Assembly: GCF_025273655.1 (NCBI RefSeq)
Contig: NZ_CP045921.1
Coordinates: 510,001 to 542,000 of the forward strand
Direction: 5' to 3'
Source of the DNA: Candidatus Saccharimonadota bacterium
GTDB lineage: Bacteria; Patescibacteriota; Saccharimonadia; Saccharimonadales; Saccharimonadaceae
Length of the DNA stretch: 32,000 bases
Shown: piece by piece, positions 13,863 to 18,057 of the stretch
Numbering within the stretch: position 1 is the first letter of the stretch
How the letters are laid out: each line of letters begins with the position of its first letter
Notes under the pieces: model-generated
Databases searched by the model: none
Told to the model about the DNA's origin: nothing
Seen by the model: the letters and a program-made list of their open reading frames with translations, nothing else
Program-made: the position numbers and the translations under genes

Positions 13863-14474
13863 CTATCCTATTTTGATCGAGTTTCCCTTGAGGGTTTGGC
13901 GTTTGGGTACCGTTAATGGTGTCTGGGCGGGGCGATTTGGATCGGCTAAGCGCCTCAGTATAGCGCGTAGTTGCGAGGCGTAGGTGTGTTTGCCGCTGAT
14001 TACCACGGCTTTCTCCTCTTCTCCAGGCGCCGTAAAGCGTTTCGCAAGATGTGCGTAGCGCTCATCAGGAAGGATAAAAATCTTGTCTTTATTGACTCGA
14101 CTCGCGCGCGTTGCACGATCATATGCAGTGTCGCCATCTGTTTGTACCCACACGAAGAGTGGCTCGTAATTATGCTTACGGATCCATTTGGCGAAGTTTT
14201 GCCTATCTACCTTAGCCTCGGTACTTGTTTCAACTAGAAATGTCTGCGAAGTCTTGAGAAGTTCGCTAATCTGCAGCATTACCAGTCTGTCGACGGTTTT
14301 TTGCTCGGCGGTATCGTAGACAGGATTTTGTGTGATGATACCGCGCACTTGGTCTGCCTCGACGTACGGCACGTTAAACGTCTCCGCGAACTTACTTGCA
14401 AACTGGGTTTTACCCACTCCAGGCTTACCGATCACGAAAATCACCCGCGGCGTAGTCAGACTCAACGATTTCAT
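13863..14474 (-). CDS. P-loop NTPase / kinase-like ATP-binding protein
   Basis: Walker A VIFVIGKPGVGKTQF. Start set at the ATG at 14474 (TATACT 7 nt upstream). The longer ORF to 14660 reads antisense through tRNA-Trp (GIEPRSS artefact). Confidence 0.7.
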   Translation of the reverse strand: MKSLSLTTPRVIFVIGKPGVGKTQFASKFAETFNVPYVEADQVRGIITQNPVYDTAEQKTVDRLVMLQISELLKTSQTFLVETSTEAKVDRQNFAKWIRKHNYEPLFVWVQTDGDTAYDRATRASRVNKDKIFILPDERYAHLAKRFTAPGEEEKAVVISGKHTYASQLRAILRRLADPNRPAQTPLTVPKRQTLKGNSIKIG

Positions 14475-14528
14475 ACGTATCAGTATAGCAGATAGTAGCC
14501 GTGCGGGCGAAATCAGGGCCTGATATGA

Positions 14529-14557
14529 TTTACATTTGCTAGAGGGATTGATATAGT
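14529..14557 (+). promoter_or_regulatory. promoter of tRNA-Trp (TTTACA-N17-TATAGT)
   Basis: Hexamers with a 17-nt spacer, ending 15 nt before the mature tRNA 5' end. Confidence 0.5.
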
Positions 14558-14572
14558 GATACGAGCTGCTAT

Positions 14573-14647
14573 AGGGGTATAGTACAGCGGTTAGTATATC
14601 GGTCTCCAAAACCGACGACCTAGGTTCGATTCCTAGTACCCCTGCCA
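14573..14647 (+). tRNA. tRNA-Trp (anticodon CCA), CCA end encoded
   Basis: Manual cloverleaf: acceptor AGGGGTA/TACCCCT, anticodon stem TCGGT/ACCGA with loop CTCCAAA, T-arm CTAGG-TTCGATT-CCTAG, discriminator G plus CCA; 75 nt. Confidence 0.93.
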
Positions 14648-14705
14648 ATATAAATGACACACTGTCAAAGGTATGTCATTTATATTTTATGCTATAATCA
14701 CAGAT

Positions 14706-15044
14706 ATGAACACCCACCAACTACAACTTGCCACCGTGCCATTTGATGCTATTACATCAGGCGCAAAAACGATTGAATCACGACTATATGATGAAAAACG
14801 CCAAACAATCCAGATTGGCGATACTATTGTCTTTACGAACCGAGAAAACACCGATCAAACCGTATCGGTAAAAGTTATCGGCTTGCTGCGCTACGAAACA
14901 TTCCACGATCTTTTCTCTCACAATGACCCTGCTAAGTTTGGTGGAGAGAGCGTTGAATGGCTTGAAAACCAGATCAACGAATTCTACTCTGTTGAACAGC
15001 AGAGGCAAGATGGCGTTATCGGCATCGAATTTGTGCTCCTGTAG
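14706..15044 (+). CDS. stand-alone ASCH (PUA-like) domain protein
   Basis: PFDAITSGAKTIESRL ... IQIGDTIVF ... GVIGIEFVLL matches the ASCH layout (GxKTxExR, C-terminal IEF). Start at the ATG at 14706 has an extended -10 (TGCTATAAT) ending 7 nt upstream. Confidence 0.7.
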   Translation: MNTHQLQLATVPFDAITSGAKTIESRLYDEKRQTIQIGDTIVFTNRENTDQTVSVKVIGLLRYETFHDLFSHNDPAKFGGESVEWLENQINEFYSVEQQRQDGVIGIEFVLL

Positions 15045-15045
15045 G

Positions 15046-15074
15046 TTGCATAAAACCATAAACTCTGTTATAAT
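15046..15074 (+). promoter_or_regulatory. near-consensus promoter (TTGCAT-N17-TATAAT with TG extension) upstream of the GC-rich gene
   Basis: Lies in the low-GC spacer and overlaps the stop of the ASCH gene. A leader of about 58 nt ends in a GGGAGG RBS. Confidence 0.55.
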
Positions 15075-15138
15075 CACTACCGTCCTATCCACCTGCTAGG
15101 TCAACCAAAAAATCCTAGCAATCATCGGGAGGTGTACC

Positions 15139-16482
15139 ATGACCGCATCAACGGTCATTAACAACGTTGTCATTCGCCCTGCGGCGTCTGATGACTTCGA
15201 GTGGGTCGCCGACCTCATGGTTCGGGCGCTCAGCCCGTTCTACGACGGCGACCATCGTGCGCACGCACAGCGCATCTTCGACACCCACATGGAGGGTGGC
15301 GTCGACCACGTCGGTCACTTCTCGGCTGGACAGTACATGTTCATCGCCGAGCAGGACGGGCAGCGGGTCGGCATCATCCACGTCGTGGAGAAGAAGCAGG
15401 AGACGGTGAAGATCAGTCCGCTGATCGTTAGCACCGACTACCGTGGGAAGCTGGGAATCGGAAGCATGCTGCTCAAGCACGCTGAAGAGTTCGCCCGCAA
15501 CCTCGGTGCTCGGCAGCTATACTGCACCGTCGCCTCACCGAACCAGAAGGCGTTGGAGTTCTTCCTCCGGAAGGGCTTCCGCATCACTGGTACGGCGAAG
15601 GATCACTACAAGCAGGGTGTCGACGAGCACATGCTGTACAAGCAGCTCGTGGACGAGGCGGGTTTCGACTCGCCCAATGTCTCGGTGATCCCCTTCGACG
15701 AGGAGAATCACGCTGAAGGCGCGCGGAAGCTCATTCTGTCGCAGATGAGCGATGTTTTCCGTGGTGTGGACGACGATTGGGTTGACGCCCTGTTCGCTGG
15801 CTACAAGCGGAAAGAACTTGGCGACGTGAATGCCAAGTACAAGATCATCTTCACCGCCGAGTGTGGTGGTCAGGTGGTCGGCATCGCTGGCGCTACACCG
15901 AAGAAGGGTCAGCCCATCAAGCTGATGCCGCTCGTGACGTTGTCGGAGGCAGCGTTCGAAGCGCTTGTCATCGACCTTCAGGGATTGCTGGCGGACTACG
16001 GTCACAAGCTGTACGTTCACCTCGTTCCCGAACCGTGGCAGGTCGCCTGCCTCCAGCGTCACGGCTGGACGCTCGAAGGTGTGTTCCCGGGAGGGTACGC
16101 ACCGAACAGTGTCGTGCAGCAGTGGGGACTGAACTTCAACAAGGAAGGAGCAACCGTGCGTAAGATGCGCATCAAGCGTCCGTACTACGACGCGATCATG
16201 TCGGGTCGCAAGACCCTGGAGGTTCGCGTCGGATACGACAACATCAAGCGGCTGAGGGCCGGGGAGATGTTGCAGCTCGAGACCGGACACACGTCGGGGG
16301 TGGTGAGGATCAAGTCGATCCGCATCTACAACAACTTCGCCGATATGCTGGCGACCGAGCCGTGGCGAGAGATCGTCCCTCAGGTCAACAGCGAGGCGAT
16401 CGCCCTCCAGCTCCTACGCGAGATCTATCCCGCACACAAGGAGCGTCTCGGTGTTCATGTCATCGAGGTCGAGAAGCAGTAG
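15139..16482 (+). CDS. GNAT acetyltransferase - second GNAT-like domain - ASCH domain fusion protein (447 aa)
   Basis: Domain 1 has the acetyl-CoA motif (YRGKLGIGSMLLKHAEEFA). Domain 2 is GNAT-like without that motif. The C-terminus RPYYDAIMSGRKTLEVRV...GVHVIEVE is ASCH. Sampled lines are 62-67% GC with GC3-rich codons, and there are many shadow ORFs. Confidence 0.85.
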   Translation: MTASTVINNVVIRPAASDDFEWVADLMVRALSPFYDGDHRAHAQRIFDTHMEGGVDHVGHFSAGQYMFIAEQDGQRVGIIHVVEKKQETVKISPLIVSTDYRGKLGIGSMLLKHAEEFARNLGARQLYCTVASPNQKALEFFLRKGFRITGTAKDHYKQGVDEHMLYKQLVDEAGFDSPNVSVIPFDEENHAEGARKLILSQMSDVFRGVDDDWVDALFAGYKRKELGDVNAKYKIIFTAECGGQVVGIAGATPKKGQPIKLMPLVTLSEAAFEALVIDLQGLLADYGHKLYVHLVPEPWQVACLQRHGWTLEGVFPGGYAPNSVVQQWGLNFNKEGATVRKMRIKRPYYDAIMSGRKTLEVRVGYDNIKRLRAGEMLQLETGHTSGVVRIKSIRIYNNFADMLATEPWREIVPQVNSEAIALQLLREIYPAHKERLGVHVIEVEKQ

Positions 16483-16620
16483 GACAAAACGGGGTTCGCA
16501 TTCCTGAGACGGAGTAATCCGCTCAATCGTGCGAGTGACTTGGGCTAGTGTCACTGGTGCCTGACTTAAGGTACCGAACAACTAGCCTGCTTTCTTTGGA
16601 AATTATATTACACCACAATA

Positions 16621-16650
16621 GGTTCGATAATCATCCTTCAACCCCTGCCA
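16621..16650 (+). repeat. degenerate direct copy of the tRNA-Trp 3' end (attR-like remnant)
   Basis: GGTTCGAT-AATCA-TCCTTCA-ACCCCTGCCA compared with tRNA GGTTCGAT-TCCTAGT-ACCCCTGCCA. That is 22 of 25 aligned positions with one 5-nt insertion. It does not fold as a tRNA. Confidence 0.5.
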
Positions 16651-16685: not shown

Positions 16686-16767
16686 ATGGCACATAGCAAG
16701 CTGAGGATTATGCATCACAAACTGATTTGATGGATAGGGGGTAATAGTTTTATACTTGAGACAGTTT

Positions 16768-18057
16768 ATGCGGCTCTCTCGAACACACGCACCAGAAGCG
16801 GATACCTTTGTACCTTCGATCGACCTACCACCAATGCCGGGCGACATAGGGAGGATGGACGGTGCGGTACGCGACTCCCATCGCAACACAGAACCTGCAT
16901 TTGGTAAATTTATGCGATGGACCAGTGCATCTACTCTGGGGGCGGTAGCTGCTGGTGCCGTCTGGCTAGGAGCTGATATTGTTCATGGCGTGCACGATGG
17001 ACGTGAAGCTGTCCAGAGTAGTCATGCTATGGTGCATGAGGTATACGGGAGCCATACAGAGATTGATGTGCTTCATGCTCATCATGGCACTTTTGTGCTG
17101 ACGGGCCTAGGCACCAAAAACCCCACCAAAACTGCCGAAGTCCTTGAGGTACATAAGGAGGCCGGTCAGGTCTTCGCACTTGAATACAGCAACCGCGATC
17201 TGGACACAAAAGATATGGCAAAACGTGTCATTGCAACTGCAAAAACGCACGAGTTGACTGAAATATCGTTTGACGGGTATAGTGCCGGCGGGCCAATCGC
17301 TCTGGATATAGCAGCCCACATTAGGGAGATGGAGCCGGAACTAAATATCGTTGCAATTGTCTTCAATAGTTCGCCCATCGGCGACGATAGCCTCACCGAC
17401 AGGAGTAGGGAGGGCATAGATCTTATGCAGACAATACTCTCGGTAGATGAAGATCTAGCGTATTATCTCAAAGGGCGTATAGCTACCGAGCTACTAGCAC
17501 GTAGCGATCGTTATATCGAGCGGTCACCCGCAAGTGATCGTCGTCTTACAATTCATAGCTACAAGAGTTTTGACTATAATGGTACTCATTATGAAGTACT
17601 ATACCCAAACATCTTACCGGAGTTGTATGACATCATTGATAAGCTTAGCGACGAAGATGCCGCTAGTGCAATGCTCATATGGGAGCAAGCCAAGTTTATT
17701 GTGCAGACTGACTACGAAAAAAATATTGCTACACTCCCAGAAGATACTCTCATCGTCTACACCTGTGCCTGGCAAGAATCTGACGACCAGGTTGTTGCTA
17801 CTAATCCAAGTGCCACAAACCTACAAGTTGCTGCCGAGAAGCATAATCTGCAGTTTAAGCTCATAAAAGCCCAGGTGGGCCATGCGAATCCGGGCGAAGA
17901 CACAGCTCAATATACCAATATGATACGCCAGATCCAGCCATACATTACTAACCGTCTCGTTAAAATCGTGCTGCCACGCGAAATGGCCACTCATGCCCTA
18001 CCTTCATCGACTGAGCCGAATGCGCAGGTTAGAGCAGAGGCTGCGCCACCACGCTAG
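16768..18057 (+). CDS. membrane-anchored alpha/beta-hydrolase-like protein (putative esterase/lipase)
   Basis: One TM helix (STLGAVAAGAVWLGADIV). Nucleophile elbow GYSAGG (GxSxG). Start is uncertain: ATG at 16768 with TATACT 11 nt upstream, while the ORF track uses TTG at 16756. Confidence 0.55.
   Translation: MRLSRTHAPEADTFVPSIDLPPMPGDIGRMDGAVRDSHRNTEPAFGKFMRWTSASTLGAVAAGAVWLGADIVHGVHDGREAVQSSHAMVHEVYGSHTEIDVLHAHHGTFVLTGLGTKNPTKTAEVLEVHKEAGQVFALEYSNRDLDTKDMAKRVIATAKTHELTEISFDGYSAGGPIALDIAAHIREMEPELNIVAIVFNSSPIGDDSLTDRSREGIDLMQTILSVDEDLAYYLKGRIATELLARSDRYIERSPASDRRLTIHSYKSFDYNGTHYEVLYPNILPELYDIIDKLSDEDAASAMLIWEQAKFIVQTDYEKNIATLPEDTLIVYTCAWQESDDQVVATNPSATNLQVAAEKHNLQFKLIKAQVGHANPGEDTAQYTNMIRQIQPYITNRLVKIVLPREMATHALPSSTEPNAQVRAEAAPPR

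Follow-up and report, generated by a model that had tools for sequence, protein, structure and literature searches.

A mobile gene pair of Saccharibacteria that couples a GNAT-GNAT-ASCH protein to a small ASCH protein, possibly as acetyl writer and eraser

Introduction

This report concerns a pair of genes in a 32,000-nucleotide stretch of the genome of a Candidatus Saccharimonadota bacterium (contig NZ_CP045921.1, positions 510,001 to 542,000), which is called the window here and whose own numbering is used throughout; its GC content is 0.506. One gene encodes a small, stand-alone ASCH protein, and the other a large protein in which, as modelled, a GNAT acetyltransferase domain, a degenerate GNAT domain and an ASCH domain follow one another. 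The two genes form a conserved, functionally linked module, and in Saccharibacteria the pair is a discrete, horizontally mobile cassette. The large gene has repeatedly been lost or broken while the small gene persists, and the reverse was never seen. Judging from the sequences, it is possible, and it is our tentative preference, that the cassette joins a mobile acetyl writer to an ASCH eraser that serves as its antidote, with RNA or cytosine nucleotides as the target. No description of such a GNAT-GNAT-ASCH plus ASCH module was found in the literature.

That ASCH proteins erase N4-acetylcytidine (ac4C) is a very recent proposal, and the cassette is a natural genetic clue to their physiological role. 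With an ASCH family tied one-way to an ASCH-bearing acetyltransferase, the question of what ASCH enzymes act against becomes testable. Whichever function proves correct, mobile cassettes as small and as clearly delimited as this one, in which accessory genes move between the very reduced genomes of Patescibacteria, are rarely seen.

Linkage, mobility and one-way dependence

How firmly are the two genes tied to each other? One genome per species was searched in a profile-guided scan, and 80 loci came back, mostly from Saccharibacteria; the others came from Paceibacterota, Magasanikbacteria, Andersenbacteria, Berkelbacteria, Levyibacteriota, Minisyncoccia or plain Patescibacteria, and a few short contigs were binned outside Patescibacteria. 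All loci beyond the window are metagenome-assembled, and some genes that appear split could be assembly errors. A small-ASCH orthologue adjoins the large gene in 81 of 88 loci, that is, in 81 of the 81 in which adjacency could be determined; the remaining seven are contigs that end inside or beside the large gene, except for L053. In 64 loci the small gene precedes the large one on the same strand; in 14 it follows the large gene in convergent orientation, and three loci, where the matches are weaker, have it downstream in the same orientation. The two proteins have also diverged together (r = 0.94 over 64 unique pairs, Mantel p = 0.001), among close pairs (r = 0.83) as well as distant ones (r = 0.78). 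An earlier note on the window, made from its letters and translated reading frames, had proposed a two-gene module, and this survey of related genomes upholds it: a lack of conserved adjacency, which the note had named as counting against the module, is decisively contradicted by the 81/81 loci and the co-divergence.

The pair also moves. A DNA block of ~1.9 kb (~14687-16606) is common to >45 Saccharibacteria loci at 72-94% nucleotide identity, with its left edge at 14676-14705 in all of these, while the genes that flank the loci sort into 235 unrelated clusters. The flanks differ even where the large proteins are 91-95% identical. An atypical composition and a frequent position beside tRNA genes, both described below, also speak for mobility.

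The dependence between the genes runs one way. In a reverse scan, with the small ASCH as query against metagenome contigs, 74 loci had enough flank to be judged, solo status being assessed within 2.5-5 kb of the small gene. The orthologues found (72-83% identity) were accompanied by the large gene in 37/74 loci and solo in 32-37/74 (~45%). Set against this, the large gene was alone in 0/81 loci (Fisher p = 6e-13, taking 32/74 as solo). Two long contigs carry the small gene alone, one of them between groEL and clpB and the other elsewhere, and no DNA trace of the large gene was found on either. In a tree of 112 distinct small-ASCH sequences, paired genes surround at least 5-7 separate clades of solo ones. 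While ~99 small genes are intact, the large gene is split or truncated in seven cases and takes a natural GNAT-GNAT-only form in five; in one Saccharibacteria subclade (L079, L081, L083, L085 and L087; 350-residue forms) the C-terminal ASCH domain has been lost and the upstream small ASCH kept.

Some further observations concern broken or oddly placed copies. In L059, L116 and L143 the large protein is split after about residue 314 into a GNAT-GNAT reading frame and a separate ASCH reading frame, each time at the same domain boundary. Short open reading frames (ORFs) lie ~600-800 nt upstream of the solo small ASCH genes in L153, L155, L160 and L168; their similarity to the large protein (44-57 bits) stops after its first ~50 residues, and they may be relics of a decayed large gene. 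Contigs binned as metagenome-assembled genomes of Clostridia, Spirochaetia, Gammaproteobacteria or Deltaproteobacteria also bear the module (L008, L054, L064, L076, L084). The Clostridia and Spirochaetia contigs are probably mis-binned, since they are 1.1-1.6 kb long and encode proteins 95-96% identical to the Saccharibacteria protein.

Is one of the two genes foreign? The earlier note had described a native small gene beside an alien large one, on the strength of their nucleotide composition. The compositional difference is real: the small gene has a GC content of 0.44 and a third-position GC content (GC3) of 0.44-0.46, the large gene 0.60 and 0.80, and the flanking genes a GC3 of 0.52. Such a contrast inside the window would suit a chance adjacency of a native gene and an inserted foreign one. 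However, the GC3 of the large gene lies above that of the flanking genes in 88% of 80 loci (mean +0.16) and that of the small gene below it in 94% (mean -0.125), and these opposite biases hold across host GC contents of 0.32-0.55 and protein divergence down to ~50% identity. The pair is found, moreover, in two arrangements and in several phyla. The unbroken adjacency and the co-divergence exclude chance, an explanation to which virtually no weight can be given, and the recurrence of the GC contrast rules out a one-off foreign insertion as the full explanation. Since the contrast travels with the cassette, it is no evidence of a recent insertion into this genome. What survives of the native-and-alien reading is at most an ancient origin, with the small gene as the more autonomous partner, since it exists alone in about half of the related loci; the genes now travel and diverge as one block. 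A 251-codon antisense ORF (15535-16290) was also considered as the cause of the high GC3 of the large gene and was rejected: its position varies between loci, and antisense open frames vanish in low-GC orthologues. The long antisense ORF is rather a by-product of the high GC3.

The two proteins

The small ORF (14673/14706-15044) and the large ORF (15139-16482) lie on the + strand and yield products of 112 and 447 residues. The ATG at 14706 is the start of the small gene in its orthologues (MNTHQL or MTTHQL). An identical 447-residue protein is also encoded by two Logan contigs, and its relatives at 79-97% identity lie on contigs most of which bear the label Saccharibacteria or Nanosynbacter. 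The coding features are:

14706..15044, + strand: small ASCH gene (Pfam ASCH, orthologue profile, AlphaFold2 and Foldseek)
15166..15645, + strand: GNAT domain 1 (GNAT1), residues 10-169 of the large protein (Pfam Acetyltransf_1, Foldseek, invariant columns)
15682..16134, + strand: predicted GNAT domain 2 (GNAT2), residues 182-332 (AlphaFold2 secondary structure, tandem-GNAT Foldseek matches)
16159..16476, + strand: C-terminal ASCH domain, residues 341-446 (Pfam ASCH, similarity to PF0455/PH0355, Foldseek)

Two neighbouring, co-oriented ASCH genes are thus present, as had been claimed, and both products exceed the curated Pfam ASCH cut-off (PF04266, 21.2 bits), the small protein with 42 bits (E = 1.6e-10) and residues 344-446 of the large one with 41.4 bits (E = 2.4e-10). 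The small protein is acidic (isoelectric point, pI, 4.7; net charge about -8), and the free ASCH is acidic in 86% of loci (median pI 5.5). Its octapeptide is of the GKER type (G19-K21-E24-R26) and is accompanied by a PH0355-like RLYDEKR motif; the four octapeptide residues are invariant across 14 small-ASCH orthologues, paired and solo. A profile built from these 14 matches PH0355 (2Z0T) at E = 9e-22. The AlphaFold2 model (predicted local distance difference test score, pLDDT, 83) aligns in Foldseek to the same PH0355 structure (2z0t) with a TM score of 0.80-0.83 and to the ac4C amidohydrolase YqfB (9kyf) with a TMt of 0.73.

For the large protein, the AlphaFold2 model was made from 15 diverse homologues (pLDDT 88.8, pTM 0.78), and Pfam, the model and the Foldseek matches agree with the GNAT-GNAT-ASCH order that had been read from the sequence. 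Acetyltransf_1 is found at residues 10-160 (60.8 bits against a cut-off of 20.7 bits, E = 2e-16), and GNAT1 resembles single-GNAT entries of the PDB with TMt 0.72-0.86. It keeps the acetyl-coenzyme A (CoA) loop region, RGKLGIG, with G106 and G108 invariant, and is predicted to be the catalytic domain. The middle region (residues 180-335) has no Pfam match; in the model, residues 182-332 repeat the GNAT order of strands and helices, and the top PDB matches of the large protein in Foldseek are tandem GNATs (VipF 6wqb, 2wpw and 5kf1, over ~347-375 columns). A KKxxxxK(I/L)xPL(I/V) strand is common to GNAT1 and GNAT2 as an internal repeat, and the gene itself contains a direct DNA repeat (15336-15375 and 15846-15885). 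GNAT2 lacks the R/QxxGxG/A loop, with TLSEAAFEAL and no glycine loop after strand 4, and has a conserved motif of its own, GATPKKGxPIKLMP. It is a degenerate GNAT, probably retained for substrate binding. The C-terminal region is ASCH/PUA-like, as had been expected: besides the Pfam match, it resembles PF0455 and PH0355 by sequence (1S04/2Z0T, E ~1e-9) and viral ASCH proteins by structure (TMt 0.73-0.86). Its octapeptide reads G355-K358-E361-R363, of which K358, E361 and R363 are invariant. This fused domain is basic (pI 9.8, net charge +6), and it is basic in 64/64 orthologues (median pI 9.9).

The signature shared by the two ASCH domains had been taken as a link between them. It is indeed present in both (SGAKTIESR in the small protein, SGRKTLEVR in the large one), but GxKxxExR is the superfamily-wide ASCH octapeptide (preprint 10.64898/2026.02.27.708502), and such a generic motif is therefore no mark of special kinship. 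The two domains share 29% identity over 59 residues, each is nearer to Pyrococcus PH0355/PF0455 (E ~1e-9) than to its partner, and the small-ASCH profile scores 16-28 bits on large proteins as against 60-229 bits on true orthologues. The low identity and cross-profile scores rule out a recent tandem duplication, in agreement with the earlier note.

Could the large protein be an ordinary acetyltransferase of proteins or small molecules, of the RimI, SpeG or aminoglycoside/streptothricin type, while the ASCH domains only bind the ribosome or RNA or serve an unrelated purpose? The best sequence matches of GNAT1 are to RimI, Naa50, SpeG and streptothricin/nourseothricin acetyltransferases, and JGI labels the homologues "RimI-like". 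However, these matches fall far below the family cut-offs (RimI, 45.9 vs 86.4 bits; streptothricin acetyltransferase, STAT, 34 vs 420 bits) and thus amount to generic GNAT similarity, and the obligate ASCH partner, the invariant ASCH motif and the fusions to nucleotide hydrolases described below would be left unexplained. This explanation appears very improbable.

Borders and regulatory elements

Outside the coding regions, the block and its borders contain the following features:

14573..14647, + strand: tRNA-Trp (CCA) gene (ARAGORN; Rfam tRNA, 68.5 bits), the left border of the cassette
14647..14686, no strand: AT-rich inverted repeat with 16-nt arms, 94% complementary, between the tRNA gene and the cassette
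14690..14698, + strand: extended -10 promoter-like box, TGCTATAAT, read from the sequence, at the left edge of the block
15066..15074, + strand: second, candidate extended -10 box, TGTTATAAT, for the large gene, a direct repeat of the first
15082..15138, + strand: leader of the large gene, ~57 nt, with GTCCTATCC, a hairpin and a ribosome-binding site (RBS), from an alignment of 15 loci
16483..16600, + strand: structured 3' element, ~120 nt, with two small hairpins, a two-part terminator-like stem and a U-run
16618..16650, + strand: degenerate copy of the tRNA-Trp 3' end (TAGGTTCGAT...CCT...ACCCCTGCCA), from local alignment

The tRNA-Trp gene is a possible insertion landmark of the cassette. 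Within 500 nt of the pair, genes for tRNA or transfer-messenger RNA (tmRNA) are enriched ~10-fold (18 near vs 10 far, p = 6e-9). They have at least ten identities and nearly always lie just upstream of the small gene, in the same direction (loci with such a gene next to the cassette are L009, L013-L016, L020, L047, L062, L063, L065, L071 and L075). The adjacency is seen for 22/113 paired small genes compared with 1/37 solo ones (p = 0.008). With respect to the tRNA-Trp gene, the hairpin and the remnant of the tRNA 3' end, the block of L014 and L015 is turned around. The hairpin at 14647..14686, which in sequence looks like the terminator of the tRNA gene, also borders the cassette in L009, and in L015 it is found on the opposite side. 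The degenerate tRNA-Trp copy beyond the right edge is also conserved in L009, L010 and L046, and L015 has it in inverted orientation. Its local alignment score of 26 is the best in the window outside tRNA genes; an att-like direct repeat bracketing the cassette is only suggestive, however, since shuffled sequences reach 28. No recombinase was found in the block, and no integrase or transposase nearby.

Both genes are preceded by promoter-like sequences. The TGCTATAAT box ends 7 nt before the ATG of the small gene, a near-leaderless arrangement, and was not called by a consensus promoter scanner, which requires a -35 box. A TGnTAnAAT box occurs in the intergenic region of 24/52 distinct loci. 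In the leader of the large gene, a hairpin (GCTAGG at 15095-15100, CCTAGC at 15114-15119) stands directly before the RBS (GGGAGG, 15127-15132); four of the six pairs in its stem show compensatory double changes across the 15 loci (GCTACG/CGTAGC elsewhere), and the end of its loop, AAAAAT, is conserved. From this pattern the hairpin may be a translational operator. The 3' element, whose long stem reads GGGCTAGT...(GGTGCC-loop-GGTACC)...ACTAGCC, forms the right edge of the shared block. In an alignment of 24 loci, 11 of the 26 pairs predicted for the element show compensatory changes, and unpaired stretches (ATGCGAGTGAC and CGAACAA) are very conserved; an alternative AGTGAC/GTCACT pairing could, to judge from the letters, compete with the terminator stem. 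The element also occurs in L003-L058, about 125 nt after the stop codon of the large gene, and it follows that gene closely: it is present in 79-82 loci with the large gene and in 0/52 loci without it. It is present in a single copy in the window and in none of the viral contigs, and no Rfam family matches it.

Two ORFs of the window lie just outside the conserved block. A 433-residue ORF (16756-18057) follows the cassette and has no Pfam, NCBIfam, PADLOC or PHROG match. On the - strand, a 265-codon ORF (13863-14660) has weak matches to P-loop kinases (AAA_33, KTI12, Zeta-toxin-like and AAA_17) and overlaps the tRNA-Trp gene in antisense. As the initial ~30 codons of this ORF (...GIEPRS...) are read-through of the tRNA, its true start is probably further downstream; a comparison of flanks across loci showed that it is not a conserved neighbour of the cassette.

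The tRNA genes beside the cassette raise the question of whether the pair might be a housekeeping part of the epitranscriptome, the large protein being a tRNA or rRNA cytidine acetyltransferase that replaces TmcA/TmcAL in bacteria of the candidate phyla radiation (CPR) and the small ASCH the enzyme that erases its ac4C, so that the mark could be regulated dynamically. The module occurs widely among Patescibacteria, its fused ASCH is basic and its neighbours are housekeeping genes; PUA-like domains are commonly fused to RNA-modifying enzymes (PMC7641849), and ASCH proteins erase ac4C from tRNA (10.64898/2026.02.27.708502). On the other hand, the distribution is patchy, ~45% of the loci with close small-ASCH orthologues being without the large gene, which is also often split, and the position of the pair varies even between genomes whose proteins are 91-95% identical. 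The tRNA adjacency is tied to the paired cassette and not to the solo small ASCH, and the helicase/ATPase domain of TmcA/NAT10 (DUF699) is absent from the large protein in Pfam and NCBIfam scans. A housekeeping role of this kind is accordingly thought quite improbable.

Neighbouring genes and relatives

Among the neighbours of the cassette in CPR genomes, genes for NUDIX, HIT, Fic and OLD/Gabija-like ATPase proteins are scattered, of which NUDIX and HIT recur; Pfam and PADLOC scans of 149 flank-gene clusters revealed no conserved third gene. Searched against PADLOC-DB v2, the large protein matched nothing beyond the candidate system PDC-M11A, by generic GNAT similarity (E = 6e-6), and the small ASCH had no match. 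A phage origin was rejected after a tblastn search of 50,697 phage records, in which the small protein had zero matches; the large protein had one weak match, to an ASCH gene of a Streptomyces phage. In some Nanosynbacter loci (4242-4514 in L003, L004 and L005; 159-431 in L092) the pair is immediately preceded by a third gene, small and PUA-like; its product has 90 residues and a weak match to DUF3850, and in L092 a NUDIX gene stands beside it.

Some loci lie in other surroundings. L007 neighbours AIPR, Vsr and DNA methylase genes. High-GC relatives from outside the CPR (L175, 4001-5833; L176, 5001-6848; L178) have 569-615 residues and carry a ~170-residue helical N-terminal extension resembling a helix-turn-helix (HTH) domain. 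That of L175 lies on a conjugative element, between relaxase/TrwB-like genes and hsdM of a type I restriction-modification (R-M) system, and that of L176 follows a trio of helicase, MZB (DrmB-like) and PLD genes, a DISARM-like drmA/B/C set. Defence-related contexts of this kind were seen only for these N-terminally extended relatives (L175, L176) and for L007.

Other, more distant tandem-GNAT homologues of the same family are fused to domains of nucleotide pyrophosphatase families. P0141, P0152, P0176 and P0187 have C-terminal MazG-like or dUTPase_2-like regions, each below its Pfam cut-off but recurrent, and P0212 has an N-terminal Ham1 domain above the cut-off. One structural match, BFVD A0A6J5KPZ7_1, is a phage protein whose annotation includes a cytidine/dCMP deaminase domain. 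A permuted "ASCH-GNAT-GNAT" order is only suggestive, from a 15-column hhalign motif match at the N terminus of P0193 (probability 0.8%) and a weak Pfam ASCH match in P0227 (E = 0.023).

What might the cassette do?

In the mechanism that we tentatively prefer, GNAT1 would use acetyl-CoA to acetylate a target held by the basic fused ASCH domain. Through the latter, the enzyme would settle on a cytosine nucleotide or on a cytosine-type base of an RNA, most probably a tRNA. The N4 amine of the cytosine or a neighbouring amine would then be acetylated by GNAT1, while GNAT2, its CoA loop lost, would probably shape the substrate site. The small ASCH would remove the acetyl mark or otherwise neutralise the large protein. 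Each gene would be transcribed from its own extended -10 promoter, and the conserved leader hairpin just before the RBS of the large gene suggests tight control of the writer. As proposed, the small gene would be kept alone and the large gene never alone because the small ASCH is the antidote, and the large gene could decay while the small one persists because the small ASCH neutralises the writer. We infer that a nucleobase or RNA receives the acetyl group, and likewise the nature of this target, the antagonism of the two proteins and any toxicity. Besides the linkage, the co-divergence, the one-way dependence and the mobility, the proposal is supported by the K/E/R octapeptide, which is invariant in both proteins, by the charges, the fused ASCH being basic and the free ASCH mostly acidic, by relatives in conflict contexts and by the (PIN)-GNAT-EVE precedent described below.

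Work on other ASCH proteins bears on the second half of this mechanism. A 2026 preprint of the Meskys laboratory reports that 19 of the 19 ASCH proteins tested deacetylated ac4C in tRNA, whether of GKER or GKTR type, and that most of those tested also hydrolysed free ac4C; mutagenesis of TthASCH, EOLA1 and TRIP4 found the Lys and the Glu/Thr essential for ac4C removal, and a basic pI range of ASCH was linked to nucleic-acid binding (10.64898/2026.02.27.708502). The writer/eraser idea of the earlier note has thereby gained outside support for the eraser, the tested set including GKER proteins, while for the acetyl-cytosine part we still rely on inference. The note had also offered a role in conflict as an equal option, and the one-way dependence, the mobility and the occurrence of relatives in defence and mobile-element contexts all strengthen it.

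Several observations weigh against an antagonistic pair. The neighbours of the cassette in CPR genomes are mostly housekeeping genes, and no known defence system was matched by PADLOC among the flanking genes. The HTH-extended relatives, in which defence contexts are seen, have no neighbouring small ASCH (profile check, L175). A fused ASCH that retains its catalytic motif inside the writer would be futile, on the reading of that motif, unless the fused domain only binds. The separate promoters and the convergent order in 14 loci are unlike classical, co-transcribed toxin-antitoxin pairs. For the GNAT-GNAT-only variants that keep the small ASCH, a helper subunit is as good an account as an antidote. 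Finally, the MazG-like, dUTPase-like and Ham1 fusions point to free nucleotides as substrates, and to cooperative clean-up rather than to a toxin.

The last of these points leads to the principal alternative, in which the two proteins would cooperate, with no antagonism, in the clean-up, salvage or detoxification of cytosine-type nucleosides and nucleotides. The small ASCH would deacylate N4-acyl-cytidines taken up from the host, or act in an adjacent step or as a subunit, and the ASCH domain of the large enzyme would bind a cytosine nucleoside or nucleotide, or an aminoacyl- or peptidyl-nucleoside antibiotic, an amine of which would be acetylated, inactivating or marking the compound. MccE and RimL, which acetylate processed microcin C, provide a model. 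Besides the fusions of tandem-GNAT homologues to house-cleaning hydrolases (MazG-like/dUTPase_2, Ham1) and the structural match annotated as a cytidine/dCMP deaminase, this alternative is favoured by the recurrence of NUDIX and HIT genes among the neighbours, by the acidic small ASCH, which resembles the nucleoside-acting YqfB in this respect, and by the retention of the small ASCH in GNAT-GNAT-only variants. CPR bacteria are dependent on salvage, and the window contains tmk, dcd and thyX, which the earlier note had reported nearby. In salvage, free ac4C is a substrate of YqfB and EOLA1 (PMC6972931; bioRxiv 10.64898/2026.08.01.741249). Clean-up fares less well with the fused ASCH, which is uniformly basic and hence of the nucleic-acid-binding type, and a simple pathway does not predict a strict one-way dependence or the repeated decay of the large gene only. 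The individual MazG-like matches are below Pfam cut-offs, and nucleoside antibiotics are only a conceivable substrate. Cooperative clean-up is a serious explanation, albeit a rather doubtful one.

What would follow from each? If the cassette is a writer and eraser acting as toxin and antidote, nucleobase or RNA acetylation would join the chemistry of bacterial conflict, and the GNAT-EVE/ASCH systems, predicted since 2013, would gain an experimental footing. If it serves in clean-up, it would show how salvage-dependent episymbionts cope with modified nucleosides of the host or with nucleoside antibiotics.

Comparison with known systems

The best structural matches of the large protein are tandem-GNAT enzymes (Foldseek E ~1e-12). 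Like VipF, CBG of the clavulanate pathway, the glucosamine N-acetyltransferase of C. acetobutylicum and Eis, it appears to combine two GNAT folds, one active and one degenerate. Unlike those enzymes, to which it is 11-15% identical, it does not conserve their domain orientation (root-mean-square deviation ~18-20 Å), and they have no ASCH domain and act on unrelated substrates. With the toxins TacT, AtaT and KacT, which acetylate aminoacyl-tRNA and so arrest growth, it shares the GNAT fold; these, however, are single GNATs of ~170 residues with a sequestering ribbon-helix-helix (RHH)/DUF1778 antitoxin, as opposed to a tandem GNAT with an ASCH partner, and profile and sequence searches detected no specific similarity of the cassette proteins to them.

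The ASCH erasers of ac4C (YqfB, TthASCH, EOLA1 and the Pyrococcus ASCH) have the same beta-barrel fold as the ASCH domains here, with the essential Lys, an acidic or hydroxyl residue and the Arg. The small protein is, like YqfB, a single acidic domain of ~110 residues. The parallel with YqfB drawn by the earlier note thus stands as regards the fold and the Lys/Arg motif, but neither ASCH domain is of the YqfB type: both are Glu-type (GKER), with Glu in place of Thr24 (GKTR). Both nevertheless have the residues broadly required for deacetylation (K21/E24 and K358/E361), and activity is predicted from this motif. To our knowledge, deletion of yqfB in E. coli has no phenotype. YqfB is an established ac4C amidohydrolase (PMC6972931; PDB 9KYF/9KYH), and none of the characterised ASCH proteins is reported to have an obligate acetyltransferase partner.

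By layout, the closest parallel is with the (PIN)-GNAT-EVE operons, almost all of which encode a separate ASCH protein; they are predicted toxin-antitoxin or conflict systems, none of them characterised (PMC7641849), and, as that paper relates the proposal of Iyer et al. (2013), they may acetylate a DNA base. In both cases a GNAT carries a C-terminal PUA-like, base-binding domain and is accompanied by a stand-alone small ASCH (here in 81/81 loci), and in both HTH-containing variants occur. Here, defence or mobile contexts, type I R-M included, were seen only for the N-terminally extended relatives and L007. There are several differences. The fused domain here is ASCH, a match to EVE (PF01878) not being reported in the Pfam scan; the GNAT is a tandem, of which one domain is read as active and the other as degenerate; a PIN domain is absent; the hosts are mainly Patescibacteria, where the neighbours are mostly housekeeping genes; and the AAA_17-type ATPase is not a conserved neighbour.

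A last parallel, one of analogy and not of homology, is with DarT-DarG and other writer/eraser pairs of toxin and antidote, in which a modifier is likewise carried only together with a possible reverser and orphan antidotes are tolerated. Unlike DarT-DarG, the cassette would presumably transfer acetyl and not ADP-ribose, its folds are different, the genes are not always co-transcribed, and toxicity and reversal are here only proposed. By this analogy, the cassette might be an acetylation-based counterpart, a mobile toxin that acetylates nucleic acids paired with a small ASCH amidohydrolase as antidote, a specific form of the proposal that we consider unlikely. Its basic ASCH domain would guide the toxin to tRNA or some other nucleic acid, where it would acetylate cytosine N4 or, beside the CCA end, the aminoacyl amine; erasing this mark would fall to the small ASCH. 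Insertion beside tRNA genes would spread the cassette among ultra-small Patescibacteria, and its expression would be under the control of the leader hairpin and of the structured RNA at the 3' side. A natural bacterial cassette with both a writer and an eraser of N4-acetylcytosine would then be a first.

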